NCBI GenBank assembly: GCA_002429485.1
Contig: DIZX01000015.1
Location: forward strand, 256,197-320,196
Length of the DNA stretch: 64,000 nucleotides
Source of the DNA: Patescibacteria group bacterium UBA6017
GTDB lineage: Bacteria > Patescibacteriota > Saccharimonadia > UBA4664
Direction: 5' to 3'
Positions 1,714-49,227 of the stretch are shown one piece after another. The notes below the pieces were generated by a model that was given only the letters and a program-made list of their open reading frames with translations, did not search any database and was not told where the DNA came from. The position numbers and the translations under genes are program-made. How positions within the stretch are numbered: the first letter of the stretch is position 1; the number at the start of each line of letters is the position of its first letter.

Positions 1714-1977
1714 ATGAACATTAGCCAACAACTTACCATTCGCGGCGTCGATAAGACCACCAAGAAGAGCTTGGAGGCCCGTGCCCGTCAGCGCGGCCTC
1801 AGCCTCAATGCCTACAATCTTGAGCTACTACGTCGCGACGCGGGCACCAGTCCCGCCCGGCCCACCAATGGGCTCGAGCGCTTTGCCGGTCTTATGCCCT
1901 TCGACCCCATAGTTGAGGAGACGCTGGCCGATCAGCGCCGCCCCACTCCCGACAAATGGGACAATCATGGCCTATAG
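1714..1977 (+). CDS. vapB: Type II antitoxin (VapB-like, ribbon-helix-helix/AbrB-type).
   Basis: An 87-aa basic N-terminus (MNISQQLTIRGVDKTTKKSLEARARQRGLSLNAY) directly upstream of a PIN gene and overlapping it by 11 nt. Confidence 0.6.
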   Translation: MNISQQLTIRGVDKTTKKSLEARARQRGLSLNAYNLELLRRDAGTSPARPTNGLERFAGLMPFDPIVEETLADQRRPTPDKWDNHGL

Positions 1978-2368
1978 CCAATCATTCGCCATCGATACCA
2001 GCACCTTTTCACTCCTGTTGCGCGGTGATGACGACGTCAGAGACCTAGTTGGCACGGCCGAGCTCGTAGCTGTCCCGATTATTGTTGTAGCCGAGCTGCG
2101 CGCCGGCTTCCTGCATGGCCAAAAAACTGCACAGTATGGTCCCATCCTCGATGACTTTCTCTCTGATCCCCACACTATCGTTTTGCAGATCACGGACGAC
2201 ACCGTACCGGTCTACGCCGAGCTCTACGCCTACGCTCGCTCCAACGGTAAGCAATTCTCCAATAATGACCTCTGGATAGGGGCGCTCTGCATCCAGCACA
2301 GCTATCCGTTGCTTACGCACGACAAGGACTTTGATGCCCTGCCCCAGGTACGTCGCGTCCGGGGATAG
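1967..2368 (+). CDS. vapC: PIN-domain ribonuclease toxin (VapC-like).
   Basis: ORF 1913..2368. The likely start is MAYSQSFAIDTS at 1967. The acidic residues are spaced as in a PIN domain (IDTS...D...D), and the gene is translationally coupled to the upstream antitoxin. Confidence 0.7.
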   Translation: MAYSQSFAIDTSTFSLLLRGDDDVRDLVGTAELVAVPIIVVAELRAGFLHGQKTAQYGPILDDFLSDPHTIVLQITDDTVPVYAELYAYARSNGKQFSNNDLWIGALCIQHSYPLLTHDKDFDALPQVRRVRG

Positions 2369-2437
2369 CGGTCCTCCGTTTGACTTCAGATAGCAAAGAC
2401 GGCAAAATCGATAAGGTAAAGAGGTTGTGAATTACAC

Positions 2438-3451
2438 ATGGCAAACACGCAGAAACGCGCCCTCATCACGGGCATCACCGGTCAAGATGGAATGTATCTC
2501 GCTGAGTTACTCCACGAGAAAGATTATCAAGTTTATGGACTAATTCGGGGTCAGCACAACCCCAAGCGGCACATCCTTGAGCAGCACTTCCCTTGGGTTG
2601 AGCTTCTCGAAGGCGACCTGTCCGATATGGGTTCGCTCATCGCCGCTCTCGAAGTCTCTCAGCCCGACGAGGTCTACAACCTCGGGGCCATCAGCTTCGT
2701 CGCCCTATCATTCAAGCAACCTGAGCTCACCGGCAACATTACTGGTCTCGGAGCTCTGCGCCTGCTCGAGGCCATTCGCGTGGTCGATGGTGGTAAGGGC
2801 AAGATGCGCTATTACCAGGCTTCCACCAGCGAACTTTACGGCAAAGTTCGTGAAACTCCTCAAAATGAGCTCACCCCCTTCCACCCGCGCAGCCCCTACG
2901 GCGTCGCTAAGGGCTACGCTCACTTCATGACCGTCAACTACCGTGAGAGCTACGGCATCCACGCCTCTTGCGGCATTCTCTTCAACCACGAATCTCCCCG
3001 CCGTGGCTATGAATTTGTCACCCGCAAGGTCACTAGCTCTGTAGCTCGCATCAAGCTCGGCCTCCAAAAGGAGCTCGTACTCGGCAATATCGACTCCCAG
3101 CGCGATTGGGGCTTTGCCGGCGACTACGTCGAAGGTATGTGGCGCATGCTCCAGCAGGACGAGCCCGATGACTACGTGCTAGCTACCGGTGTCACTCACC
3201 CCATCAGCGAACTCCTCGACCTCTCCTTCGCCGAAGTCGGCATCACCGACTGGAAGCCCTACGTGAAGCAAGACCCGCGCTTTATGCGCCCGGCCGAAGT
3301 CGACCTGCTTCTGGGCGACCCGAGCAAAGCCAAAACCAAACTAGGCTGGGAGCCTAAAGTTAAGTTCCCCGAGCTAGTAAAGATGATGGTCGCAAACGAC
3401 CTCGAAATCGAAGGCAAAAAAGAGCTCGGCTCCGCAAACTCTGGCGCTTAG
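2438..3451 (+). CDS. gmd: GDP-mannose 4,6-dehydratase.
   Basis: [38 protein letters not shown]... has the Gmd N-terminus and a Y-x3-K SDR core. The length is 337 aa. Confidence 0.95.
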
Positions 3452-23784: not shown

Positions 23785-24315
23785 ATGCCGAGATTGCCAA
23801 AGAAGCGAATAATCCTCTCCTGCGCAGTATTGGCTGTTGTGGCCATTTGCATAGGCGCTTATGCGTACAATCTAGATAGGCGATTGGCCATCGTTCCGAC
23901 CAGCGCAACCCCATCGGCTAGCCAAACCCCCGGAGCAGACACCGCAACCCACGCTGGCCCGGGTTCCGACATCGCGGCGTCCCCCAAGGTCGAACCTACG
24001 CCCTCTACAGCCAAGGTGCAGCAACCTACCGGTCAACTCCTGAACACTCATTCCGTCAGCCTCAGCTCGGGGATAACCAGTATAGATTCTACCTGCAACT
24101 CAGTGTCTGGGGCCACCTGCGCCATCCGGGCCACTCGGGGCGCTGAGACCATCACGGTCGGTACGGCAACTACCTTGTCTGATGGCTCAAATGGTCTTGA
24201 AATAATCTGGGATGCCAAGAAACTCAGTAAAGGAACCTGGATTATCCGTGCGGTTGCTAGTAAAGGTTCTCAAGAGGCACAATCGGACCCTGACAGTCTG
24301 GTGGTTGTTGAATGA
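23785..24315 (+). CDS. Membrane-anchored Ser/Thr/Pro-rich protein of unknown function.
   Basis: An N-terminal TM segment (ILSCAVLAVVAICIGAYAY) is followed by a low-complexity linker and a small C-terminal domain. The stop overlaps the next gene (ATGA). Confidence 0.5.
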   Translation: MPRLPKKRIILSCAVLAVVAICIGAYAYNLDRRLAIVPTSATPSASQTPGADTATHAGPGSDIAASPKVEPTPSTAKVQQPTGQLLNTHSVSLSSGITSIDSTCNSVSGATCAIRATRGAETITVGTATTLSDGSNGLEIIWDAKKLSKGTWIIRAVASKGSQEAQSDPDSLVVVE

Positions 24316-27233
24316 CTAAATCGTTACGTGTTTCGGCCCTTGTGCTCTTAGTAGCTACGGTTTCAATTGCAGCTTTTATTGTCCCTGCACATGCCACCGA
24401 CTATAATAACTCCCGTCTCATGGACGACCAGATCTTCGATAACAACGCGAGCATGAATGAGTCTCAGATTCAATCCTTTTTGAGTGCTCGTGGGTCTTGT
24501 CTTGCAAGTTATAACGACGTGGACCCAACCTGGACCGGCTCAACTTGGACATACGGCGGAAGCGCCTCAGCCGCCCACACCATCTACAAGGTCTCTCAAC
24601 AATGGGGGCTGAATCCGCAGGTAATCATTGCGACACTCCAGAAAGAGCAGAGCCTGATAACTGGCGCGGGTTGTGTTGCTCCACAAATAATCTCTGCGAT
24701 GGGGTATGATTGCCCAGATTCAAATGGCCGGTATGACTATCCCGCTATCGGAGTTACCCAAACCTGTGTTTCCCATCAGAAGAATGCGGGCTTCGCCAGG
24801 CAAGTGCTTTGGGGTTCATGGCAATTAAAGTTCAATAAAGAGCGTGCCTATGGCAATACCAGCTGGGACGGCGATGGTAGCCTTATTTACGGTGGGTACA
24901 TGACAGCCGGAGTTCGCAAGCGGTGTGATACTTGCCAGTCATTCTCCTACGACGGCAATACATCTATCGACGGGCAGGCTCTCCATATCGACAACGGCAC
25001 GACCGCCTCGCTCTACTACTACACTCCTCACCTCGGACAGTCTTTCCCCGGGATATTCGAGGGTTGGTTTGGCTCAACTCTTGTTCCCACATATGCCTCT
25101 CAGTTCGCTGGTGTGTCGGCTTACCCTACAATCGTCCCAGGCACCTCTGTAACGGTCACATTGAGCTATCAAAATGTCGGGAACCTAGCTTGGTACGACG
25201 ACGTTAGTGCGCAATCCGCGGGCCAGTTGCCGACCCACCTCGCCACCAGTCACGCCTTAAATAGGACTAGCCCATTTGTCCTGGGTGGGGGCCAAAATCG
25301 CCCTGCCCTAACTTTTGCTGCCGTGTATATGAGTGATGGGACCACGCTAGCTTCAAACCAGCACGTAGCGCAATCGAGTCAGATTGTTAAATTCTCATTA
25401 GTTCTCGTGGCCGACCGGTCGTTGCCGGCAGGGCAATACCGGGAGTATTTCCAGCCGATCATCGAGGGGGGGAGCGTAATGAATGATCCCGGCACTTTCG
25501 TGGATGTAAATGTACCCGACCTTGACGCTTCGTCAGCGGCCGGTCAATCTGGCTATCCTACTTTAAAACCCGCACAGGGGGCTGCCGCCTTCTTAACCTA
25601 TCGCAACGCCGGCAACACTCGGTGGTGCGACGATATTGCTATGGCACAGGCTTCGTCTGGGTGTCATCGCGTTCATTTGGCAACGTCTCATGCCATCAAT
25701 CGTGCCAGCGCCATAGGCTCCGAATGGGGTCCAGGTAAAAACCGCCCCGCCCTAACCTTTGCCGCCGTTTATTTGGGGGATAATATCACTCCAGCGCCAG
25801 ACCAACATGTCGCTTTGCCTGGGCAGTTTATTAAATTCACCTTCAATTTCGTTGTGCCAGAAAACCAGGCGCCCTCAACCTCGCAAGAGTACTTCCAGCC
25901 AATAGTCGAGGGTGGAGCCACCATGAACGACCCTGGAACCTTTCTAAATGTCACAATATCATCAGCGTCAACTTCTGTAGCAGTTAGTGCCCCCGCTCAG
26001 CAATTTGTTGCGGGCGAGACCAAGACGCCCTCCCTCTCCTTCAGGAATACGGGCAACGTCGCCTGGTCGAATGCTAATACCAAACTTTTGGCAGTCAATG
26101 ACTCTAGCAAGGTTTTCAAAAACATCAGCTGGGCTAGCCCTACGATAGCCGCTAGCATGAACGAGTCAAGCGTGGCTCCGGGAGGCACCGCTACCTTCAG
26201 CCCCTCTCTGACTGCGCCAGTAGGAGCCGGGAGCTATACTCTTAATTTTGCCCCCGGTGAGCAGAATGTAGCGTACGACGGCCCCAAGGCCTCAATGGGT
26301 GCGACCGTCTCTGGTGCTATATACTCTTCACTTTATGCTGGCGAGTCAGGGTATCCTCAGATTCGCCAGGGCCAGTCTGCAACTGCCTGGATTCGTTATA
26401 AGAACACGGGCAATATTGCCTGGTACGACGATACCAATGCTTCCACTGGCCCCGCTGGCGTCAAGCCAAGTCACCTCGCAACGAGTCACGAACTCAATCG
26501 TAGTAGCGTCCTAGGTAACGTCTGGGGAGGAGATAATAACCGCCCCTCAGGCAGCCCTTCCGCTGTCTACGAAAGTGACGGGACTACTCTTGCGGCTAAC
26601 CAGCATCTCATTCAGCCTGGCCAAATTGCCCAATATCGTTTCATTTTGAGCGCTCCGTTCGGCCTTGCCACGGGCATAAGACGTGAATATTACCAGCCGA
26701 TCGTAGAGGGCGGAACCACCATGAACGACCCCGGGACTTTCCTAGACGTCGAAGTATTGCCTGGCACGTATTCTAGCCAGTACTACTCGCAGTCTGGCTA
26801 CCCCAGCATAGCTCGACCCGCGAGCGGGTCTGCAACAGCCGCCGCCTACATAAGCTACAAGAATACCGGTAACACTCCCTGGTATGACTCTTCCAGTGTG
26901 ACGCCCGGCAATTTGCCCACCAACTTAGCCACTAGCCACTCCGTCAACCGAGCCAGTGGTTTGGCTGACGTATCGCCCAGCGGCTGGTGTAATAGCAGCT
27001 CCCGCAATCGCGCCGCGTGCCAGTTCGCTGCCGTATACGAAAGCGATGGTATCACTCCTGCCGCCAGCCAGCATGTAGCCCAGCCCGGCCAAATCGTGAA
27101 ATTTGCTTTCAGCTTCTCTGCCACCCCCACCACTCCGCTAGGAACCACGCGCGAGTTCTTCCAGCCCATCATCGAGGGCGCCACTACTATGAATGACCCG
27201 TGGACCTCCCTCGAAGTTACTATCACGCCTTAG
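24312..27233 (+). CDS. Large secreted repeat protein (973 aa). A signal peptide and a ~260-aa N-terminal domain are followed by five tandem ~135-aa repeats.
   Basis: The signal peptide is MTKSLRVSALVLLVATVSIAAFIVPAHA. The repeats share a (S/A)GYP ... Y-N-GN-x-W-DD ... LATSH-x-NR-S ... NRPA ... FAAVY-SDG-T ... QPGQI ... REYFQPI-EGG-x-MNDPGTF core. The third repeat is divergent. Confidence 0.75.
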   Translation: MTKSLRVSALVLLVATVSIAAFIVPAHATDYNNSRLMDDQIFDNNASMNESQIQSFLSARGSCLASYNDVDPTWTGSTWTYGGSASAAHTIYKVSQQWGLNPQVIIATLQKEQSLITGAGCVAPQIISAMGYDCPDSNGRYDYPAIGVTQTCVSHQKNAGFARQVLWGSWQLKFNKERAYGNTSWDGDGSLIYGGYMTAGVRKRCDTCQSFSYDGNTSIDGQALHIDNGTTASLYYYTPHLGQSFPGIFEGWFGSTLVPTYASQFAGVSAYPTIVPGTSVTVTLSYQNVGNLAWYDDVSAQSAGQLPTHLATSHALNRTSPFVLGGGQNRPALTFAAVYMSDGTTLASNQHVAQSSQIVKFSLVLVADRSLPAGQYREYFQPIIEGGSVMNDPGTFVDVNVPDLDASSAAGQSGYPTLKPAQGAAAFLTYRNAGNTRWCDDIAMAQASSGCHRVHLATSHAINRASAIGSEWGPGKNRPALTFAAVYLGDNITPAPDQHVALPGQFIKFTFNFVVPENQAPSTSQEYFQPIVEGGATMNDPGTFLNVTISSASTSVAVSAPAQQFVAGETKTPSLSFRNTGNVAWSNANTKLLAVNDSSKVFKNISWASPTIAASMNESSVAPGGTATFSPSLTAPVGAGSYTLNFAPGEQNVAYDGPKASMGATVSGAIYSSLYAGESGYPQIRQGQSATAWIRYKNTGNIAWYDDTNASTGPAGVKPSHLATSHELNRSSVLGNVWGGDNNRPSGSPSAVYESDGTTLAANQHLIQPGQIAQYRFILSAPFGLATGIRREYYQPIVEGGTTMNDPGTFLDVEVLPGTYSSQYYSQSGYPSIARPASGSATAAAYISYKNTGNTPWYDSSSVTPGNLPTNLATSHSVNRASGLADVSPSGWCNSSSRNRAACQFAAVYESDGITPAASQHVAQPGQIVKFAFSFSATPTTPLGTTREFFQPIIEGATTMNDPWTSLEVTITP
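25101..27230 (+). repeat. Five tandem ~400-nt coding repeats inside gene 24312..27233.
   Basis: Approximate units are 25101..25511, 25542..25955, 25989..26306 (divergent), 26337..26753 and 26787..27230, with conserved W/Y/NDPGTF positions. These are protein-level repeats, not CRISPR. Confidence 0.7.
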
Positions 27234-27276: not shown

Positions 27277-28563
27277 TCAGAGCATCCCCTCAAAACGAAC
27301 CTTGATAGCAGATCCAGTTTTGGCGTAGCCAGATAAAAGTTTTTTGATAAGTTTCAGTGGGGTAGCCATTGCTATTAAACCCGGCGCCTGTGCGCCCGTT
27401 AGAGCCCAGTTAGCCACCTGAGCCGAAATGCTTATTGCGGCACGGTCAACATAAATTTCAAAATAGTGAGCGCCAAGTAGGGTCAGGCTCAGGTATGCGA
27501 GTACTGTGATAGCGACACTAGGCGTGTATCCGAAGTGAGGGATAAGGGAAGAGAAGATATAGGTAGAAAGGCCCATAAGGGTAATTTGGTGTAGCAAATA
27601 TAGGCTGAATGATTTTTGCCCCAGATAAACCAACGGCCGCCAGCTAAGCCATTTTTGAACACGCGGTAGTCCAAGGATTGCAACCAGCACAAAAAATGCC
27701 GCAAGGTTATGCCAAAAAAACGTGTTCTCAACCACACTCCACCCTTGAACAAACAACAACTGGTATGTCGTCTGTGCCGGGTTTCCATATGTTGTGTAGC
27801 CTCCTAGGAGTATGCCGGTTGCCAGTAGCCCCCAACCACATCTTCGGATCTGACGAGCCAAGTCAGCACGCCGATCTGCTGTTGCCAGTAAATCGGCCAG
27901 CAGCATACCGACGACAAATCCCAGGTATTCCGTTCTCAGCACCGCAGCAACCAGTGCTAGGTAAATAACCCAGCGTAGCCTGTTCTGCCCAAATAGGGCG
28001 GTTATAGCAAATACCAGAAAAGAACCAAATAACTCTATTTGCATAGTCCAAAGAACGGGGTTGTATATTCCGGAGCCGGAAACGAATGTGCCGAAAAGCC
28101 CCTCGTAAATCGCCTTGCCTATTGAAGGCTCGAACTGAAAATAGTTTGCTGGGCTATGTGTAATGAGCTGGACCCCTGCCCAGTTTTGAAACAGACCAAG
28201 CTTCATTAGTAAGTATGCCAATATAACTGAAACTAGCACTGGTATTGCCAGACGAAGATACCTTTTGGACGCGGCTCGCTCTAGTGACTTCGGGTCACGC
28301 CGTTTAAAAAAAATCCGAGCAAGAACGTACCCGCTCAAGGTGAAGAATATTGCCACTGCGAAATTACCACTTACTAGTACGCCGAGCGGTGAGGTATAAA
28401 ATAAATGCGCGAATCGCGAGTGTGTCGCAATGGGCGGCCCGACAACCATTGCGGGGAAGTAAACCGACGCGGTGTGAAAAAGCACCACCATAAGAGCTGC
28501 TAGCCCCCGCAGACTCTCCAGATATAATAACTTCGCTTTTGGCTCACCGGTATCTTCCATCAT
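27277..28563 (-). CDS. Acyltransferase family 3 membrane protein (O-acyl/acetyltransferase).
   Basis: MMEDTGEPKAKLLYLESLRGLAALMVVLFHT followed by ~10 TM segments. Confidence 0.85.
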   Translation of the reverse strand: MMEDTGEPKAKLLYLESLRGLAALMVVLFHTASVYFPAMVVGPPIATHSRFAHLFYTSPLGVLVSGNFAVAIFFTLSGYVLARIFFKRRDPKSLERAASKRYLRLAIPVLVSVILAYLLMKLGLFQNWAGVQLITHSPANYFQFEPSIGKAIYEGLFGTFVSGSGIYNPVLWTMQIELFGSFLVFAITALFGQNRLRWVIYLALVAAVLRTEYLGFVVGMLLADLLATADRRADLARQIRRCGWGLLATGILLGGYTTYGNPAQTTYQLLFVQGWSVVENTFFWHNLAAFFVLVAILGLPRVQKWLSWRPLVYLGQKSFSLYLLHQITLMGLSTYIFSSLIPHFGYTPSVAITVLAYLSLTLLGAHYFEIYVDRAAISISAQVANWALTGAQAPGLIAMATPLKLIKKLLSGYAKTGSAIKVRFEGML

Positions 28564-28622
28564 AACTATTATAAGGCATAAGCTTTCAATCCTTTACACT
28601 TACGCTATGATTCGCATGGAGT

Positions 28623-29834
28623 TTATGGCGCGGGCGCGGGTTCGTAGGCTGAGCGGCTCGACACCCTACGGCGCGGTAGCCGAGCGCGCAAAAAAAGGCT
28701 AGCCGGTGCCTCAAACAGTCGAAAGCTCAGCCAGGCGATGATGAGTGTTGTGACGAAGGTTAGGAGTGTAAATACGGGCGCTGATCGTTGGCCTAGCAGC
28801 TTTAACAGTAAAAAAATCACTAGGGGATGAAGCAAATACATCCCATAGCATAGCGCCCCCGGCAGCGTGAGAAATTGAGGCATTCGATTTGCCCACGGAC
28901 GAGTCCTCGCCACGGTTAAAATTCCGGCTATCGCGAGGCTAAGAAGAGTTGGAGCATAAACACGAGTCAGCGGAAGCTGGGCCAAGCTCAAACCCCAAAA
29001 AACGCAAAACGCCAACACTGCGAACCCTAGAGCCATGCCCAGGGCAGTTTTCCTCCCGAGATTCCGAATCCTAGGATTCGTGCTCGCCAAGAACGCCATA
29101 ACCCCAAATGCTATGCTCTCAAAGCCACTCGGGGAGCCACTAAAACCGAGCCAAAAATTCGTCGGGGCCACGAGTGAAGTTGTTAGCCGGTACAAAATGC
29201 CGATTCCGACAACGAGAGCCATAACGCGCACCAGACGAGCCGCGGAACCCCCGAAGCGCCGCAATATAAATGGGTATAACAGGTAAAACTGTTCCTCAAT
29301 CGCCAACGACCAAAATATGTCCCACTGCAGGCCCCACCCGCTCGCAATGCTCTGGTACGCGATCCGGACCCAATTGAACGCAAATAATGGCAGAGAGACG
29401 AAAAACCAGCCACTGAATTGGGCTTGGGGGTCCCGCAGGACGAAGTCGCGCGCTATGCCTGGGTGAGTTAAGTGAGCGAGCACCGCTGCCGTTAGAACCA
29501 CCACCATCGCAAGTGGCAGTAAGCGAGCCACCCGGCGTCCATAGAAGTCTAGGCTTGAGACAGCTGACAAGTTAGGACTACGAATGGATATTGTCTTAGT
29601 AATAATGAAACCGGACACAACAAAAAATATTGTCACGCCGTAAGCGGAGTTTCCTTCGAGCCGCCCCTGTAGCCAGCCTGGCCAGCCAGCCATGGCGAAT
29701 GAAACAGTAGCGCTATGACCAAATACCACAATCGCAATACTTATAGAACGCAGCAGATCTACGACCGCAAAACGTGACGTCGGTTTGGGTAGCATTAAAG
29801 CTCTCGGCTCACCAGTCTCTTCCATCATAACCAT
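28623..29834 (-). CDS. Acyltransferase family 3 membrane protein, a tandem paralogue of 27277..28563.
   Basis: MVMMEETGEPRA...LLRSISIAIVVFGHS. The 5' flank is nearly identical to that of the downstream paralogue. Confidence 0.85.
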   Translation of the reverse strand: MVMMEETGEPRALMLPKPTSRFAVVDLLRSISIAIVVFGHSATVSFAMAGWPGWLQGRLEGNSAYGVTIFFVVSGFIITKTISIRSPNLSAVSSLDFYGRRVARLLPLAMVVVLTAAVLAHLTHPGIARDFVLRDPQAQFSGWFFVSLPLFAFNWVRIAYQSIASGWGLQWDIFWSLAIEEQFYLLYPFILRRFGGSAARLVRVMALVVGIGILYRLTTSLVAPTNFWLGFSGSPSGFESIAFGVMAFLASTNPRIRNLGRKTALGMALGFAVLAFCVFWGLSLAQLPLTRVYAPTLLSLAIAGILTVARTRPWANRMPQFLTLPGALCYGMYLLHPLVIFLLLKLLGQRSAPVFTLLTFVTTLIIAWLSFRLFEAPASLFLRARLPRRRVSSRSAYEPAPAP

Positions 29835-29906
29835 TATAAGGCACCCGCCTCGAAATTTGGTATAATCGCATCGAACTCGGCTCGTTTAATTGACGGGCGC
29901 CCAAGA

Positions 29907-37707: not shown

Positions 37708-37878
37708 AGAGCGTTATTTTACTTAAAAATTTTATGCATACCAAATTTAAGTAAAATCCGGAGCAGGCATTACCAACGTATGGGCGGCGCCGGGAGTAGA
37801 GAAGTGTCCAATGTACAGCCCCCTTAAAAGATGCCTTAAACCCTTCCACCCGCATCAGTAGAGCGTATAATCAATGGC

Positions 37879-39705
<1,827 letters not shown>

Positions 39706-39735
39706 TTCGCCCTTGCCAGAGCGGATAAGCCGACC

Positions 39736-39765
39736 TTGACTATATCGCGCGAATCGGTCTAATAT
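39736..39765 (+). promoter_or_regulatory. Candidate promoter TTGACT-N18-TAATAT upstream of the small Cys-rich ORF.
   Basis: A hexamer match only. A TATCGCGC(G/A)A direct repeat at ~39742 and ~39772 overlaps or follows it. Confidence 0.3.
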
Positions 39766-39834
39766 ATCCCGTATCGCGCAACGGTTACGTCGTGCGTCGG
39801 ACGGGCTAAGGCCCACAACTTGAAGGGGAAGATC

Positions 39835-39942
39835 ATGATCGGACTGATCATGGAGTTCTTGGGCCGCTTCGGCTGCCGTTGCTACTGCGGGGGTTGCAAG
39901 GCCGACCGCCACTGCGGTGGCCCCATGTGCCATATCAGCTAG
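39835..39942 (+). CDS. Unannotated 35-aa cysteine-rich peptide (MIGLIMEFLGRFGCRCYCGGCKADRHCGGPMCHIS).
   Basis: An ATG preceded by AAGGGGAAG at 5-nt spacing. It has six Cys and two His, a TAG stop, and is followed by a hairpin. It is below the 60-aa cutoff of the ORF track. Confidence 0.4.
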   Translation: MIGLIMEFLGRFGCRCYCGGCKADRHCGGPMCHIS

Positions 39943-39966
39943 CGGCTCTGCCGCACCGCGCTACAG

Positions 39967-40010
39967 CTCCCGCCGGTGATTAACTTCACTGGCGGGAGCA
40001 TGCTATTTCC
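39967..40010 (+). terminator. Hairpin (12-bp stem, 8-nt loop) followed by a weak U-tract, downstream of the small ORF and glmS.
   Basis: CTCCCGCCGGTG-attaactt-CACTGGCGGGAG followed by catgctatttcc. Confidence 0.4.
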
Positions 40011-40183
40011 GGTGGATTGTCGAATATCTTTGTGATAGTCTGTACGTTATGAAGAGCATACGAATTCTCCTGGCAGCCTCAATTACCCAATCCGGGCTGG
40101 CGCTGCATACGTAGAAAATAGTTCACATCACCCTCGCAGCACAGCCCCGACCCCGGGGTCATTTTTATTAAGAAAGGAAGATT

Positions 40184-41482
40184 ATGCAGTTCTCGGACTT
40201 CGGCCAAAAATTTACCGCCCACTCAGGAATATTGGAGCTCATGGATGATCTGGGCCAAGCCTTGGCTACGGGCGATCAGGTGGCGATGTTTGGCGGCGGC
40301 AATCCGGCCGCCATTCCCGGCGTGCAGCGGACGATCGAAGACCACCTCACGACCCTTATGAAGCGCCCTGGCGGCGTCAATGGCTACCTGGGCAACTATG
40401 ATGTTCCCCGAGGCAACCCGGTCTTCATCGATACCGTCGTCGATTACCTCAACCGCACCATGGACTGGCAAATCACTCCGGCCCACATCGCCATTACACC
40501 TGGCAGCCAAACCGGCTTTTTCATGCTCTTTAATCTGTTGGCGGGGGACACCCAAGGCACCAAGCGCACTATCCTATTCCCGTTGGTCCCCGAGTACATT
40601 GGCTACGCCGATCAGGGCATTCAGGAGGGGATGTTTGAGGCCAACCGCCCCCGCATCGAAACCCGTGGCGAGCATACCTTCAAGTACGGCATCGACTTTG
40701 ATAACCTCAAGATCGAGCCCCATCACGCCGCCATCTGCATCTCCCGCCCCACCAACCCAAGCGGCAACGTGGTCACCGATGAAGAATTGGCGCGCCTCAG
40801 TGACCTCGCCAAGCAACACGACATCCCGTTAATTATCGATAATGCCTACGGCCTGCCTTTCCCCGGCGTCATAACCAATTCCGCCCACCTGCCAAAGTGG
40901 GACGAGCAGATGGTCTACTCCTTTAGCTTGTCGAAGGTCGGCTTGCCCAGCTCGCGTGTGGGTATCTTCGTGGCCAGGCCCGAGATCGCGGCCGCTATCA
41001 GCAAAGCCAACGCCATCCTCAGTCTCGCCAGCCCCACCCTGGGCCAGGCGCTCGGCACCTCATTGATTCAGGATGGCTCCTTGCAGCGCATTTGCCGCAA
41101 TCACATCCACCCGTACTACCGGGGCGCCGAACATTACGCCCAAACCGTGCTGGCCGAAAAATTGGCCGGCTTACCGTACCGCCTGCACGAGTATGAGGGC
41201 GCCTACTTCTTGTGGCTGTGGTTGCCGGAACTGCCGATCACCAGCAAGGAATTATATGGCCGGCTCAAAACCCGCGGGGTCATCGTGGTGCCGGGCGAGT
41301 ATTTCTTCCCCGGCCTAAACGATCCCAAGTGGGCCCATCAGCGCCAATGCCTCCGCCTCAACTTTGCCCGCCCAAAAGCCGAAGTCGACGCCGGCTTCAC
41401 CATCCTGGCCGAAGAAGTCCAGCGGGCCTATACGCAATCGTCAAAGTTATTAAATATTAATAAAAAAGCATTGATAAGTTAA
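40184..41482 (+). CDS. avtA: Valine--pyruvate aminotransferase-like class I/II PLP aminotransferase.
   Basis: MQFSDFGQKFTAHSGILELMDDLGQALATGDQVAMFGGGNPAAIPGV closely resembles the E. coli AvtA N-terminus. AAGGAAG lies before the ATG. Confidence 0.8.
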   Translation: MQFSDFGQKFTAHSGILELMDDLGQALATGDQVAMFGGGNPAAIPGVQRTIEDHLTTLMKRPGGVNGYLGNYDVPRGNPVFIDTVVDYLNRTMDWQITPAHIAITPGSQTGFFMLFNLLAGDTQGTKRTILFPLVPEYIGYADQGIQEGMFEANRPRIETRGEHTFKYGIDFDNLKIEPHHAAICISRPTNPSGNVVTDEELARLSDLAKQHDIPLIIDNAYGLPFPGVITNSAHLPKWDEQMVYSFSLSKVGLPSSRVGIFVARPEIAAAISKANAILSLASPTLGQALGTSLIQDGSLQRICRNHIHPYYRGAEHYAQTVLAEKLAGLPYRLHEYEGAYFLWLWLPELPITSKELYGRLKTRGVIVVPGEYFFPGLNDPKWAHQRQCLRLNFARPKAEVDAGFTILAEEVQRAYTQSSKLLNINKKALIS

Positions 41483-41522
41483 TAATAAGTTGATATACTG
41501 GAGACATAAATCGGAGCTCCCC

Positions 41523-41738
41523 ATGAGTGTCGTCAGTTTCTCGGTCGATAAACAAACCGAGATAGAAATCAACCAAATTGCGCTCGATGAACGCCGTTCC
41601 AAGAGTGATATTTTTCGCGATATGTACAAGTCTTACAAGTTCAACCGCACCCTATCCAAGGTCCAAAGCGTCGGCCGCGAGAGATTCTTGGCCTTGGGCA
41701 TCGAGTCAATCGATCAAGCCGAGGAATTCTTAGGCTGA
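41523..41738 (+). CDS. Putative ribbon-helix-helix antitoxin (CopG/Arc-like).
   Basis: ORF 41490..41738. The likely start is MSVVSFSVDKQTEIEINQIALDERRSKSDIF. It lies directly upstream of a PIN gene with an 8-nt gap. Confidence 0.5.
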   Translation: MSVVSFSVDKQTEIEINQIALDERRSKSDIFRDMYKSYKFNRTLSKVQSVGRERFLALGIESIDQAEEFLG

Positions 41739-41745
41739 GCCGGCT

Positions 41746-42192
41746 ATGAAACCCCTGAAGGTCGTATTTGATACCAATATCTATGTCATGGCCGCCGGCA
41801 TGCCCGGTGGTTACATTGAATATTGGATGGAACTGGTCCGACCACCCCAACTGAAATTCGAGCTGTATACCTCTCCCGCCATTTTGGCCGAGGTTCAAGA
41901 AAAATTAGAGCAAAAGCTGCAGTTTGAGCGGGCGCTGGCGGTGGACTATATTGAATCCCTTAAAACTATTGCCCGTGTGGTCAGTCCGACCATGGCATTA
42001 AACGCCGTCCCGGACGGCCCCGACGACAACCGTATCCTCGAGTGCTCACTTGAGGCTCGGGCCGACATTATTGTCTCGGCTGATAAGGATTTATTGCGCC
42101 TCAAAACCTTTGAGAGTGCGCAGATCACCCACCCGTCCAACCTTAAGTACATTTTCAAATATTTAGAGACCGAAACTAATCCCCAGACATGA
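41746..42192 (+). CDS. PIN-domain protein (putative toxin/RNase).
   Basis: KVVFDTNIYV is the PIN N-terminal acidic motif. The length is 148 aa. Confidence 0.7.
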   Translation: MKPLKVVFDTNIYVMAAGMPGGYIEYWMELVRPPQLKFELYTSPAILAEVQEKLEQKLQFERALAVDYIESLKTIARVVSPTMALNAVPDGPDDNRILECSLEARADIIVSADKDLLRLKTFESAQITHPSNLKYIFKYLETETNPQT

Positions 42193-44369: not shown

Positions 44370-46178
44370 CTAATCCTCGCTCGCCGGCCGAATGTGCGTC
44401 ACATGCGCCGGGCTGAGGCGGAACAGCCCCTCGTCCAAACGAACCTGGTCGAAGTAGTGGGCCATAAAGCCGACCGATCGCGACAAAATAAATAGCGAGT
44501 TGAAGAATTCGGTGGCCGCCAGCGCTTCAAGTTGCTCGATCGAATAGCCTTCTTTTTCGGCCAACAAGTCCAGTAAGATGGCCGCCATGGCGCCATCCAC
44601 GTTCAGGATCAGATTACCCTTTTTGCGGGTAGTTTCGGCTTCCACACCCAGTGCAAATTTGGTGAACTTAGCCTGTTCCAGGCCGTCAACGAAGGTCAGT
44701 AATTTGGCCACGCGGGGGTCGGGGGAGTCGATACGGTATTTCTTGTGCCCTATGCCCAGAATGTAGCGCTTGTCGGCCGCGTAGGCCTCCACCAGCGCCG
44801 TGGGGGATACGCCAGTACTCACGCCTTCGAGCCAGGTCAGTGCGGCTTGGTTGACCGCTCCGCCGAAACGCGGGCCGATCGTGAGCAGTCCCGCCGCCAA
44901 AGAGCTCACCAGATCGCGCCCGGCCCTCGCCGTCACGATGGTATTGACCGCCCCCGACACGTACGGACCGTGATCGACTAGCAGTTTGAGTACATAATCC
45001 ACGAAGGCTTCGAGCTCGGCCGAGTGCACTTGCTTGCCCAAAAACATCGAGATTACAATTTTAGCGAAGGAATTATTGTCGGCCAAATCGAGTAGACTTT
45101 GATCCAGCACCTGGACCTCGCCGTCACCCATATCGTGCGAGATGGAGCTGGCTATTAGGCCGGCCTTGCGAGCCGACATGGCTTTGATCACCGGCGCCAG
45201 GTCGGCGGCCTCGACCGCTCCCGGCAATTCGGCCACGTACTGCGCAAACTCAGCAAAGGTGGTCGCACTCTTGGCGCCCGCCGCGCGCAAGGCGTCGCTC
45301 TTGGCCCGCGCCGATTCATCCACACTGGCTGCCATGGCCTTAGCATGGCCAAACTGCGGCGGCGTCTCAAACAGCTCGGCCACCGTGCCGGCGATGTAGG
45401 CCACCACCGGCTTGGTTACTGCGCCGCTGGAGATCATCTCCGCCAGCTCGTATTCATCGCGCCCGCCCAGCTCGCCGAAGTACACAATTGAAGTAGTTGC
45501 TGGGTCGGCCTCTGCCGCCGCAAACACCTCCTGCGGCGAGCTCATCGGAAACCGTTCGCCGCCCAACGCCAGCGAAAAGCTCAACGCGTGGCCGGTGGTG
45601 GCCACCAGCCGAATAATCTCACTCACCATGCCGCCGCTCGAGCTCACCACTGCTACCGAGCCGGACGTAAATAGCTTCGAATTCACCAGCTGTGGCGCCT
45701 GCACTCCGCCGATCGGACCGAGCTTCACCACGCCCGGTACTACTATGCCTACGCTGGCCCCGCCCGCTAGCCACACTCCTGCCGCGTTGGCCGTTTCGGC
45801 CAGCTCCAGCGCGTGCTTTTCGGGTAACCCTTCCGCGAACACCACCCCGCCCACCAGGGCTGGCAGTGCCTCGATGGCCTGCTTCGACGACGCCAATACT
45901 CGCCGCCCCGACGATAAGTTCAAAAATAAGTTCACCTGCTCGCTCAAGCTCGTTGGCAGCCGTCCCACGGCCGAATACACCGGTATCGTCACTTCATTTT
46001 CGCCAAAGAAGTAGCGCTCGCTTTTGCGCCCCGTAGCCACTATCGCCACTACCGACGGCGCGGTGCGACCCGCCAAAAAGTCGAAATCCAGTATCGATTG
46101 AATAATACCTTTGGAGCTTCCCAGAGCCACAATCTTGGGATCAAGCGCCCGCAGAGCTGAAATATTTAGTGTACTCAC
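44370..46178 (-). CDS. aclA: ATP-citrate lyase alpha subunit (CoA-binding/phosphohistidine domain plus citryl-CoA lyase domain).
   Basis: PPQFGHAKAM matches the ACLY catalytic His loop (QFGHAGA). GIGHKKYRIDSPDPRV matches the ACLY/citrate-synthase-like GIGHRVKSINNPDMRV. The length is 602 aa. Confidence 0.8.
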   Translation of the reverse strand: MSTLNISALRALDPKIVALGSSKGIIQSILDFDFLAGRTAPSVVAIVATGRKSERYFFGENEVTIPVYSAVGRLPTSLSEQVNLFLNLSSGRRVLASSKQAIEALPALVGGVVFAEGLPEKHALELAETANAAGVWLAGGASVGIVVPGVVKLGPIGGVQAPQLVNSKLFTSGSVAVVSSSGGMVSEIIRLVATTGHALSFSLALGGERFPMSSPQEVFAAAEADPATTSIVYFGELGGRDEYELAEMISSGAVTKPVVAYIAGTVAELFETPPQFGHAKAMAASVDESARAKSDALRAAGAKSATTFAEFAQYVAELPGAVEAADLAPVIKAMSARKAGLIASSISHDMGDGEVQVLDQSLLDLADNNSFAKIVISMFLGKQVHSAELEAFVDYVLKLLVDHGPYVSGAVNTIVTARAGRDLVSSLAAGLLTIGPRFGGAVNQAALTWLEGVSTGVSPTALVEAYAADKRYILGIGHKKYRIDSPDPRVAKLLTFVDGLEQAKFTKFALGVEAETTRKKGNLILNVDGAMAAILLDLLAEKEGYSIEQLEALAATEFFNSLFILSRSVGFMAHYFDQVRLDEGLFRLSPAHVTHIRPASED

Positions 46179-47365
46179 GCTGTTACCTCCAGCTCTTTTA
46201 TCGCCAACGGAATAATCGCCGCCAGCATCATTTCCGGCCCCGCTACCTCCCCCAGCAATCCTTCTCGCTCCAGGAAGCTGCGCATCATTGCCAGCCCCTC
46301 AACTTCGAACGGACCGCCCCGACGCACAAATACCTTGATACCTTGCTCGCGCATGGCCGCTTTGGCCTCGTCCAGCGCCGCAAGCACACCCTTGAACGTC
46401 GCCCGCACGTCGGTGAAGTTGGCTACTCCGCCGGCAATCACCAGCACCTTGCGCGGCGCCTTAGATTCGAGCATCAGCGAAATAATCTGCCGTGTGTAAA
46501 TTTGGGTTTCCTCGGCATTAGGGTTGCCGCTGTACTCACCGTAATTACCCAGTTCTTTGCCGCGCCCCTGATTAAACACCTCGTCCGCCAGCGCCACGCT
46601 CGCCCCGCCGCCGCTCAGTAGCAAGAAAATATTGCCCTGCGGGTTCAGTACCGCCAGCCGAAATGACGCCTGGCTTTGAGACGCCAGCTCTTCCACGGCC
46701 GCCGCCTGAGGCAGCGGAGCTGATGCCGTATAATCGCGAAAATCTTCCGGCGTCCAGCGTCCGTCCACAAAGAAGGCCGCCTCGGTATCTACCTCCACCG
46801 CCGCATCGAGTAGGCCCACTTTGCCGTCCATCACTACCAACGGGTTCACTTCCAAAAATGACCAGTAGTTATCATTAAAGGTCTTGGCGAGGAGCTGAAG
46901 TGTGTCCGTTGATACTCCCAGCGCCTCAGCCGCCCGTCCGGCTACCTCGGTCGTAAATACCGCCTGGCGAATTCCGTCCGCCGCATCTTCCACATTTACC
47001 CCGCCGGCCGCCGACCAGCTAATAATCGTGCCCGCCCGTTGGCGTTCGAACGCCAAATACCGTTCGGAATCTGCTGCGTGGTCCATCTGCGGCTCCACTA
47101 ACATAAATTCAAAACCCTTCGCCGCCAGCTCGGCGATATCGCCGCTCACTTCGGCTTTGGTGCGGCCCAGCTTCACCAGCCCCTTTTTGAAGCGCCCCTT
47201 CACTCCTTGATCCACTTTCACCACGTAGCTGCCGCCAGCCGCCAGCGAGTCCACCGTGGACTGCCAGTTGGCCTTCAGATCTATACTCACACCGCTATAA
47301 GCCGTGCCTAGTTCTTTAGCGAGGATTGTTTTGGCTCTGAATTCGGAAATTTTCTTGCGCGGCAT
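46175..47365 (-). CDS. aclB: ATP-citrate lyase beta subunit (ATP-grasp).
   Basis: ORF 46175..47449. The likely start is MPRKKISEFRAKTILAKEL at 47365, which parallels the ACLY N-terminus (KAISEQTGKELLYKF ... VVKPDQLIKRRGKLGL). A TATAAT lies ~26 nt upstream. Confidence 0.75.
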   Translation of the reverse strand: MPRKKISEFRAKTILAKELGTAYSGVSIDLKANWQSTVDSLAAGGSYVVKVDQGVKGRFKKGLVKLGRTKAEVSGDIAELAAKGFEFMLVEPQMDHAADSERYLAFERQRAGTIISWSAAGGVNVEDAADGIRQAVFTTEVAGRAAEALGVSTDTLQLLAKTFNDNYWSFLEVNPLVVMDGKVGLLDAAVEVDTEAAFFVDGRWTPEDFRDYTASAPLPQAAAVEELASQSQASFRLAVLNPQGNIFLLLSGGGASVALADEVFNQGRGKELGNYGEYSGNPNAEETQIYTRQIISLMLESKAPRKVLVIAGGVANFTDVRATFKGVLAALDEAKAAMREQGIKVFVRRGGPFEVEGLAMMRSFLEREGLLGEVAGPEMMLAAIIPLAIKELEVTA

Positions 47366-47433
47366 GGATTCTTCTCTACTTACGACAGGTATTATACCGT
47401 GATGGGTACTTAAATGTGCCATAATACTTACAT

Positions 47434-49227
47434 ATGGTGAAACCTTCAAGCGACTTCCTCGAAGACGAGGACACTGGGCAATCCGAACTCAGCTCGCAGT
47501 GGCAGCGTGCTCCGCTGTGGCTTCGTGGGGTCGGCTTAATCTTTGTTGGCGGGTTCTTGTTGGTGGGTAGCTTTGAGCTGGTCTACGCCGGTAAGATCTA
47601 TCCGGGCATTTCCGCCGATGGCGTTTCGCTGGCTGGTGCCACCCGGGCTTCCGCTGCCAAACAGCTCAATTCCAAAATTGATACCTTTTCCGGCGGCGTT
47701 GTCACCATCTCGAATGGCGACACCAATCTCCGCATCCCCGTGGCCGGTCTCGACGTGTCCTATGACACCAACAAAGCCGTCGATCTGGCCTACCAATACG
47801 GGCGCGAGGGGAGTTGGACCAACCGGCTTCATCAGCAATTACGCGCCCTTCTGGGCCGGGCAACCAACTTTTCGGCCTACGGCTATTCCGATACCCGTTT
47901 GGCCCCCTACGTGGTTCAGCTTGGCGATGATTTATCCACGCCGGTAGCCGACGCCAGCCTAAACTTTGACTCCGACAAGCCCCAGGTCACCCCGGCGCAG
48001 TCCGGCACCCGCCTCGATTATGGCCGCCTCACTCAGCTCGTTGGCGACCGGCTGTCCCAAACCTCTATCGACCCGATCCCCGCGCCCGTCTACCAGCTCT
48101 CGCCGGTCCTCGGCACCGATGCTCTCACGGCCGTCACCAACCAACTCGGCAGCTACCTGGCCGGTCCCATCACCCTCAGCTACAGCGGCACCGAAACCAC
48201 CATCGATCAGAAGACTATCATTTCGTGGATCCAGGTCGGCGCCCGCCCCACGAAGTTATTCCTTAACTCTCACGACCTAGCCGATTTATACCCGCCGCCG
48301 GCCGCGGCCAATCTGGGCTTGAGCAAGCCCGCCGTCGCCAAGTACGTTACCGATCTGGCGGCTCAGCTCGACCAAACGCCCCAAAACTCCGGCTTGGCCA
48401 TGAAGGACGGCGTGCTGGCTATCGTGCAGGCCAGCCGCACCGGCATCAAGCTCGATCAAGCCGACACTACCAGTGCCATCATCGGCAGCCTGGGTCGCAC
48501 CTCCGGCGACCGCCTCATCACTCTCAAGCTCGAGACCACCCAAGCCGCCGTCAACGAGTCTAATCTCGACTCGCTCGGCATCAAGGAGCAAATCTCGGAG
48601 GGCGAAACCTACTTCCCCGGCTCACCCAGCACCCGCCTCACCAACGTCCGCGCCGGCGCCAAGCGCTTCAATGGCGTCTTGCTGGCTCCCGGCGAAACCT
48701 TTTCCTTCGGCAAGCTCCTCGGCGCCGTCGACGCTTCCACCGGTTACGTCCCCGAACTCGTCATCCTCGGTGACCATGAGGAAAAGCAGTATGGCGGGGG
48801 ACTCTGCCAGGTATCGTCCACCGCTTTCCGCGCTGCTTTGGCTGCGGGCCTGCCCATTACCGAGCGCGTCAATCACGCTTTCGCCATTAGTTATTACACC
48901 TGGCCCTACACCGTCCCCGGTATGGACGCCACGATTTATTACCCCGCCGTTGATCTCAAATTCACCAACGATACCGGCAGTTACATCCTTATGCAGACCA
49001 TTATGAATGGTGTCGATCTCAAGTTTGACTTCTTTGGTACCAAAACTAAGACCGGCGTCATTCGCGGCCCCAACTTCGTCACTGGTACGAACGACGCCAC
49101 CCAACCTTCGCACACCGTCTTCTACCGTGACGTGCTCGACCTCGCAGGCAACGTCACCAAGACCGACACCTTCAATACCTACTACAAGTCGAGCAAGGAC
49201 TTCCCGGTTACCAAACAGTTCAACTAA
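47434..49227 (+). CDS. VanW-domain protein with an N-terminal membrane anchor.
   Basis: GGGLCQVSSTAFRAALAAGLPITERVNHAF...YPAVDLKF is VanW-like. A TM segment is present near the N-terminus. Confidence 0.8.
   Translation: MVKPSSDFLEDEDTGQSELSSQWQRAPLWLRGVGLIFVGGFLLVGSFELVYAGKIYPGISADGVSLAGATRASAAKQLNSKIDTFSGGVVTISNGDTNLRIPVAGLDVSYDTNKAVDLAYQYGREGSWTNRLHQQLRALLGRATNFSAYGYSDTRLAPYVVQLGDDLSTPVADASLNFDSDKPQVTPAQSGTRLDYGRLTQLVGDRLSQTSIDPIPAPVYQLSPVLGTDALTAVTNQLGSYLAGPITLSYSGTETTIDQKTIISWIQVGARPTKLFLNSHDLADLYPPPAAANLGLSKPAVAKYVTDLAAQLDQTPQNSGLAMKDGVLAIVQASRTGIKLDQADTTSAIIGSLGRTSGDRLITLKLETTQAAVNESNLDSLGIKEQISEGETYFPGSPSTRLTNVRAGAKRFNGVLLAPGETFSFGKLLGAVDASTGYVPELVILGDHEEKQYGGGLCQVSSTAFRAALAAGLPITERVNHAFAISYYTWPYTVPGMDATIYYPAVDLKFTNDTGSYILMQTIMNGVDLKFDFFGTKTKTGVIRGPNFVTGTNDATQPSHTVFYRDVLDLAGNVTKTDTFNTYYKSSKDFPVTKQFN

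Follow-up and report, generated by a model that had tools for sequence, protein, structure and literature searches.

Does the spacer between glmS and avtA in this Candidatus Saccharimonadia genome carry a gene for a small cysteine-rich peptide, or is the apparent gene a leftover or a coincidence? A preliminary description of the window (the whole stretch of DNA analyzed, 64 kb in length) reported a 35-codon open reading frame (ORF) at this position, here called the Cys ORF. The elements of the spacer and its two flanking genes are as follows.

37879 to 39705: glmS (TIGR01135, 767 bits)
39708 to 40012, no strand assigned: lineage-specific segment of ~305 nt between the glmS stop and the avtA promoter/leader
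39736 to 39765, plus strand: candidate sigma-70-like promoter, TTGACT-N18-TAATAT (9 of 12 matches)
39823 to 39831, plus strand: Shine-Dalgarno (SD)-like sequence AAGGGGAAG, 3 nt before the ATG at 39835, with its G run ending 6 nt before the ATG
39835 to 39942, plus strand: Cys ORF, 35 codons and a TAG, product MIGLIMEFLGRFGCRCYCGGCKADRHCGGPMCHIS
39966 to 39999, plus strand: GC-rich hairpin of 14 pairs (one G-T) with a 6-nt loop, candidate terminator for the ORF and for glmS read-through
40184 to 41482: avtA, valine-pyruvate transaminase (NF006964, 546 bits versus a cutoff of 467)

The Cys ORF and its start signals

Both glmS and avtA scored above the curated NCBIfam cutoffs. Direct reading of the sequence placed the ATG of the Cys ORF at 39835 to 39837 and its TAG at 39940 to 39942, and the translation is exactly the peptide first reported (35 aa, 6 Cys, and 2 His). 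The cysteines are located between residues 14 and 32 and are spaced as C-x-C-x-C-x2-C-x5-C-x4-C, with no Cys-Cys pairs; FGCR and ADRHCGGPMCHIS are stretches of this predicted product. The annotation was said to have overlooked the ORF, and the JGI gene caller likewise did not call it.

The SD-like sequence reported upstream of the ATG was also confirmed. Its duplex with the anti-SD sequence has an energy of -8.6 kcal/mol, the same as that of avtA, against a median of -3.0 kcal/mol for the window's 31 ATG-start genes; only 4.2% of all ATGs have a duplex as strong. In the predicted fold, the ATG at 39835 is paired within an 8-bp local stem. The AlphaFold2 model of the peptide, built with no alignment, had a pLDDT of 55.

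The Cys ORF was considered as a C-terminal extension of GlmS, with which it shares the frame, and this was rejected: TAA stops are present at 39703 and 39760, and the GlmS proteins of relatives end at the same ...VTVE. A type I toxin is not supported either, since the hydrophobic N-terminal stretch covers only ~13 residues, too few for a membrane-spanning helix, and PADLOC and PHROGs gave no match. The antisense ORF at 39421 to 39933, previously dismissed as an artefact, is best read in that way here also. It complements the reading frames of glmS and the Cys ORF exactly, codon for codon, and the GC-rich third positions of the sense strand leave few stops in it; it has zero Pfam matches and was not called by the JGI gene caller.

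A variable slot downstream of glmS

JGI metagenome contigs encode the identical GlmS protein, and by AvtA the nearest genomes are Candidatus Saccharimonadia MAGs, which assigns the window to a Saccharibacteria-type (CPR) bacterium. The closest relatives, L003 and L088, have AvtA proteins that are 88% and 87% identical, respectively, to that of the window, and in both of them glmS is followed by avtA. According to the boundary alignments, homology to both loci ends at 39707/39708, 2 to 3 nt past the glmS stop, and resumes at 40013 (L088) or 40029 (L003). Neither locus has anything corresponding to the promoter-like site, the Cys ORF, or the hairpin. It had been proposed to look for the ORF in the same intergenic position of related genomes; L003 and L088 were found to lack the entire segment rather than to have diverged copies of it, an outcome that is uninformative. 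The segment is 100% identical in four contigs (L001, L002, L087, and L093) originating from four samples of one study; JGI samples 3300012001, 3300011996, 3300012008, and 3300011992 contain this population. These contigs show few differences, all of which are outside the ORF, and because all four copies of the ORF are identical, selection is unreadable from them.

The contents of the slot in the two relatives are different from each other as well. In L088, it is occupied by a toxin-antitoxin pair, composed of a 71-aa gene and a PIN_3 gene, with an AT-rich promoter (TTGATA-N17-TATACT) of its own. The same pair is found after avtA in the window (41447 to 42192, corresponding to L088 positions 1542 to 2289; 80% nucleotide identity), where the final codons of avtA were replaced upon its insertion (432 aa versus 425 aa), and it behaves as a movable toxin-antitoxin cassette. 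In L003 (positions 1915 to 3313), glmS is followed by a DUF5671 gene (231 aa) and an overlapping 246-aa ORF without a family, which we take as a third state of the same variable slot. Because the contents differ among close relatives, the position after glmS can be described as a cargo slot and the Cys ORF as part of one cargo. The relatives at 69% to 75% AvtA identity (L089, L094, L095, and L097) say nothing on the slot, since avtA adjoins other genes in them.

The segment was also considered as a mobile element, and this reading was rejected. No repeats of the segment at 39708 to 40012 were found within the window, the boundary alignments showed no sign of terminal repeats or of a target duplication at its junctions, and the break is located 2 to 3 nt after the glmS stop. 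Tn7-type insertion usually takes place ~25 nt downstream of the glmS stop.

The window as a whole is dominated by cell envelope sugar genes, toxin-antitoxin pairs, and assorted metabolic genes, and the neighbors of the Cys ORF are glmS, avtA, PadR, the PIN toxin-antitoxin pair, and sugar metabolism genes. Elsewhere in the window, two adjacent genes with domains of the ATP-citrate lyase type are found on the minus strand at 44370 to 47449 (Citrate_bind and ATP-grasp domains in one; CoA-ligase and a C-terminal Citrate_synt domain in the other). In a CPR genome, which is reduced, such genes would be unexpected. An ORF of 973 aa that belongs to no clear family (24312 to 27233, plus strand) contains four units of ~73 nt, at 25443, 25887, 26685, and 27153, with 66% to 77% identity, which points to an internally repeated large protein that is possibly exposed on the surface. 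A 44-nt direct repeat (28535 to 28578 and 29800 to 29843; 89% identity) spans both the starts of two neighboring Acyl_transf_3 genes on the minus strand and the sequence upstream of them, and the two genes look like tandem paralogues with common 5' ends.

Coding signals, homology, and RNA elements

The length of the ORF carries no weight by itself, because 54% of the dinucleotide shuffles of the 325-nt segment contain an ATG-initiated ORF of at least 35 codons on the plus strand. At least six cysteines were encoded in 0.7% of the shuffles, a figure that concerns a feature chosen post hoc, and Cys-rich short ORFs were equally common in real and reversed sequences (19 versus 14 in 597 kb). The SD and the third-position GC content (GC3) both reached the level of the Cys ORF in 1 of the 860 ORFs of 30 to 45 codons in the loci and in 2 of the 913 ORFs of the reversed-sequence control; therefore, ~0.1 to 0.2 such ORFs are expected per 64 kb by chance. 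That Cys strings arise by chance is also illustrated by the pattern CRCYCGGCK. Its matches on viral contigs L090 and L091 are the same sequence found twice and are considered to be chance matches because they are off-frame inside the ORF of a 253-aa gene (…SAVAIVVDANG…).

The ORF frequency in the shuffles, the reversed-sequence counts, and the viral matches favor an explanation in which the segment is a noncoding 3' untranslated region of glmS with a terminator, insulating the avtA promoter, and in which the ORF, its SD, and its cysteines coincided and were picked post hoc. The promoter-like site count, which is not above expectation, agrees with this as well. However, the codon phase speaks for a coding sequence, and we consider the noncoding explanation unlikely. 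The GC3 of the Cys ORF is 30/35 (0.86) versus 0.63 overall (binomial p = 0.003). Among off-frame windows, 0.46% have a synonymous-codon score as high as that of the ORF (0.276), which ranks within the top 6.5% of real in-frame windows. The whole-codon score is at the 1.7th percentile of real windows, which is low because Cys is rare in the genome (0.6%, versus 17% in the peptide). In the 225 nt from 39781 to 40005, 63 of the 75 third positions are G or C (p = 3e-5), a level that puts this stretch among the highest 0.16% of the 225-nt windows in the 64 kb; the remaining high scorers on the list come from inside long ORFs or from the very beginning of the 64-kb window. A frame translated merely by the way would not be expected to show so strong a codon-phase bias. 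Furthermore, the GC content of the segment (~0.62 to 0.63) is at the coding level, whereas that of other spacers is 0.41 to 0.47 (the genome GC content is ~54%), and relatives do without such a spacer or hairpin after glmS. Because the median intergenic gap in this compact genome is 40 nt, an empty stretch of 300 nt would be unusual.

On both sides, the phase bias seems to extend beyond the ORF (18 of 24 third positions are G or C before the ATG and 17 of 21 after the TAG), neither extension being significant alone (p = 0.03 and 0.09), and the plus-strand frame has a single stop, the TAG, between 39763 and 40030. A relic could produce such a pattern if a longer gene had once filled the slot and been shortened by a deletion and a nonsense change, the Cys ORF being a functionless leftover in the old frame. 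We regard this as possible, though doubtful. It would agree with the rearranged state of the slot among close relatives, including the toxin-antitoxin cassette that moved across avtA, and with the odd amino acid composition of the peptide; the coding-like GC content fits recent decay and a live gene equally well. However, no homologue was found for the 89-aa conceptual read-through product or for the minus-strand frame sharing its third positions, and tblastx of the segment against the ~600 kb of fetched loci, which include the cargo genes of L003 and L088, found nothing real. In addition, a relic would not be expected to retain a strong, well-spaced SD together with a hairpin right after the stop.

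Searches for homologues of the peptide were uniformly negative. The exact ORF product was not among the called genes. A word-index protein search gave no candidate for the 40-aa TTG-start form and none for a 201-aa query made up of both frames in agreement with the GC3 phase. A phmmer search of the 35-aa peptide against 1.84 billion representatives returned no genuine homologue; the sole match (P0001) was a 1211-aa repeat protein without Cys, matched spuriously through a summed score. No families were found in Pfam and NCBIfam scans at an E value of ≤1, in PADLOC, or in PHROGs, the PDB contained no meaningful relative, and blastn of the segment and tblastn of the peptide against plasmids and phages were negative. 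A metagenome scan with the C-terminal half of GlmS gave, among the matches listed, relatives at 54% to 64% identity, none of which has the peptide. Protein databases are a weak test in this case, because gene callers skip ORFs this short. Among the features by which a coding gene is recognized, a start with a ribosome-binding site and a genome-typical in-frame codon bias were thus present, and frame conservation or homologues were not, the segment being absent from L003 and L088 and the searches having returned no homologue.

The TTGACT-N18-TAATAT element reported upstream of the ORF is present. With one such site found in the 900-nt region and 0.6 expected, it is weak evidence of a promoter on its own; if used, it would start a transcript at ~39772 with a leader of ~62 nt. 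The hairpin reported after the stop is also present, with 14 pairs instead of the 12 described and beginning 23 nt, not 25 nt, after the TAG; the T tail behind it, ATGCTATTTC, is weak. It is the sole exceptional RNA structure of the segment, because the fold of 39772 to 40012 has a z score of -4.6 relative to shuffles and one of -0.7 without the hairpin. A structured small RNA is not supported, since apart from the terminal hairpin the fold is no better than that of the shuffles. Rfam gave no family at gathering thresholds in the whole window, and a permissive scan of 39650 to 40250, which includes the avtA leader, gave chance-level matches only.

The remainder of the spacer is conserved, its final 155 nt before avtA (from ~40029) being 81% identical in L003. 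The following elements were recognized in this region (40030 to 40183).

40033 to 40041: TGnTAGTCT, an extended -10-like box ending 7 nt before the ATG of the leader ORF
40049 to 40114: 21-codon ORF rich in Ile, Leu, and Ala, MKSIRILLAASITQSGLALHT, candidate leader peptide of avtA
40144 to 40169: GC hairpin with a T run (terminator), just before the SD of avtA

This layout is shared by six other Saccharimonadia-type loci (L003, L088, L089, L095, L097, and L004), whatever the upstream neighbor, and the changes across the loci include synonymous ones in the leader ORF and compensatory ones in the terminator stem. The 7-nt distance from the box to the ATG is as expected for a leaderless start. 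A conserved GGGCTG in the 3' part of the leader ORF can pair with GGCAGC at the Ala-Ala codons or, alternatively, with the 5' arm of the terminator (82% of cells paired versus 34% to 59% in slid controls; no covariation), so that alternative 1:2, 2:3, and 3:4 pairings are possible. The region is a candidate leader-peptide transcription attenuator that would sense the supply of Ile, Leu, and Ala. In Escherichia coli, avtA is reported to be repressed by alanine and leucine, which would fit such an attenuator. Between glmS and avtA, it is the avtA leader that has the better support as a regulatory element, and because it is conserved, this leader, rather than the Cys ORF, is likely to be functional.

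TATAAT-like boxes located ~7 nt before the ATG were also seen at many genes, including glmS (37866 to 37881; GCGTATAATCAATGGCATG) and the ORFs starting at 28563 (minus strand), 29834 (minus), 47434 (plus), 30684 (plus), 62895 (minus), and 52898 (minus). The genes with such a box near the ATG have little or no SD, suggesting that leaderless mRNAs are frequent in this genome. There is no room for a 5' glmS ribozyme, because the box ends ~7 nt before the glmS ATG, and Rfam was negative for it.

Proposed reading and comparison with known systems

We tentatively favor, with somewhat less than even confidence, the reading that the Cys ORF is a translation-competent, lineage-specific small ORF and possibly a real gene for a Cys/His-rich peptide. 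In favor of a live gene are the SD equal to that of avtA, the GC3 of 0.86, the 225-nt phase, the coding-level GC content, the hairpin 23 nt after the stop, and the complete small cassettes in the slot of the relatives (the toxin-antitoxin pair in L088 and the DUF5671 gene with its ORF in L003). Against it are the lack of a homologue, the absence of the segment from L003 and L088, the odd Cys level, an ORF length expected by chance, the 2 of 913 ORFs in the control, the phase extending past the ORF ends, the paired ATG, and the pLDDT of 55.

From the sequence we infer transcription, translation, and any function that the peptide may have. The Cys ORF would be a strain- or species-specific small gene cassette in the hypervariable slot after glmS. 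Its RNA could be initiated at the weak promoter-like site within the segment, although glmS read-through is the surer source, because there is no terminator before 39966. Ribosomes would load on the strong SD, start at the ATG at 39835, and stop at the TAG ending at 39942, and the hairpin at 39966 to 39999 would terminate transcription before the separate promoter and leader of avtA are reached. The predicted product, 35 residues long, would begin with an amphipathic helix and carry the cluster C-x-C-x-C-x2-C-x5-C-x4-C-H in its C-terminal part. If functional, it would most plausibly form disulfides or use thiolates and imidazoles as ligands to bind Zn or Cu.

If the peptide is real, it adds one more lineage-specific small protein to a CPR bacterium, where the tiny genomes make each kept gene interesting, and the position after glmS would be shown to be a cargo slot in these genomes. 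The present value of the case is mostly cautionary: a signal-rich short ORF without relatives gets no function from sequence.

Bacterial metallothioneins of the SmtA/BmtA type (PF02069), together with MymT, are one group of proteins with which the peptide can be compared. Like the SmtA/BmtA type, it is small and rich in Cys and His, with C-x-C and C-x2-C motifs and eight potential thiolate or imidazole ligands; it differs in that its cysteines number only six, its N-terminal helix is hydrophobic, and three of its residues are aromatic. No PF02069-type profile matched it in Pfam at an E value of ≤1, and no metal sensor gene is found next to the ORF, the nearest metal-related gene encoding a cation efflux protein 12 kb away. 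Metal binding by the peptide is a guess made from its Cys/His composition. We see a slim chance that promoter, ORF, and terminator were acquired together, as a self-contained cassette in a swap-prone slot after glmS, and that the peptide is a new Cys/His-rich mini-protein specific to the lineage of this ultra-small Saccharibacteria cell, which could be either a minimal metallothionein-like binder of Zn or Cu or a secreted disulfide or thioether peptide with its enzyme encoded elsewhere.

The preliminary description had compared the peptide to SCIFF/ranthipeptide-like precursors. SCIFFs are widely spread and conserved in Clostridia and have an adjacent maturase, and in the characterized case, CteB is the dedicated radical-SAM maturase that processes the precursor CteA (PMC8326336). 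The peptide of the Cys ORF may resemble them in being short with six cysteines towards the C terminus (in its C-terminal two thirds), as would suit a ribosomally made precursor that is Cys-crosslinked in a SCIFF/ranthipeptide-like or similar way by a maturase whose gene is located elsewhere. It differs in length (35 aa versus about 45) and in a Cys spacing that is unlike that of the family, and it matched no NCBIfam or Pfam model at an E value of ≤1, the SCIFF precursor model included. The earlier remark that no maturase is adjacent was borne out: Pfam labels of the called genes, together with Pfam scans for 42 to 63 kb, revealed no radical-SAM, SPASM, RRE, YcaO/cyclodehydratase, lanthipeptide, or MNIO-type enzyme gene in the 64 kb. 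The 13-residue N-terminal part is too short for a typical leader, and the ORF is missing from the nearest relatives, whereas SCIFFs are conserved across Clostridia (PMC8326336). The likeness to SCIFFs and other RiPP precursors is thus not supported, and such an origin appears extremely improbable.

Polycysteine leaderless short ORFs located upstream of cysteine genes are reported to act as attenuators in mycobacteria (bioRxiv 10.1101/834739). The Cys ORF is similarly unannotated and upstream of a hairpin and another gene, with 23 nt between its TAG and the strong hairpin, so a cysteine-sensing leader could be pictured in which stalling at the six Cys codons alters hairpin folding and controls read-through to avtA. 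However, unlike those of the mycobacterial ORFs, the Cys codons here are interspersed and do not form a tract, and the ORF is SD led, ~62 nt from the candidate promoter, and hence not leaderless. The gene that follows encodes a valine-pyruvate transaminase, not a protein of cysteine metabolism. Moreover, the promoter, leader ORF, and terminator that belong to avtA itself are conserved, and relatives use them to regulate it without the Cys ORF and its segment; the RNA apart from the hairpin is no more structured than the shuffles. A cysteine-sensing leader therefore seems very improbable.

A parallel to our preferred reading, that of a lineage-specific small ORF competent for translation, is found among short ORFs of this kind in other bacteria. 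Pervasive translation of short ORFs has been reported in Mycobacterium tuberculosis (PMC9094748). The Cys ORF shares with such ORFs a length of less than 50 codons, absence from the gene calls, the presence of translation signals, and a lack of conservation.
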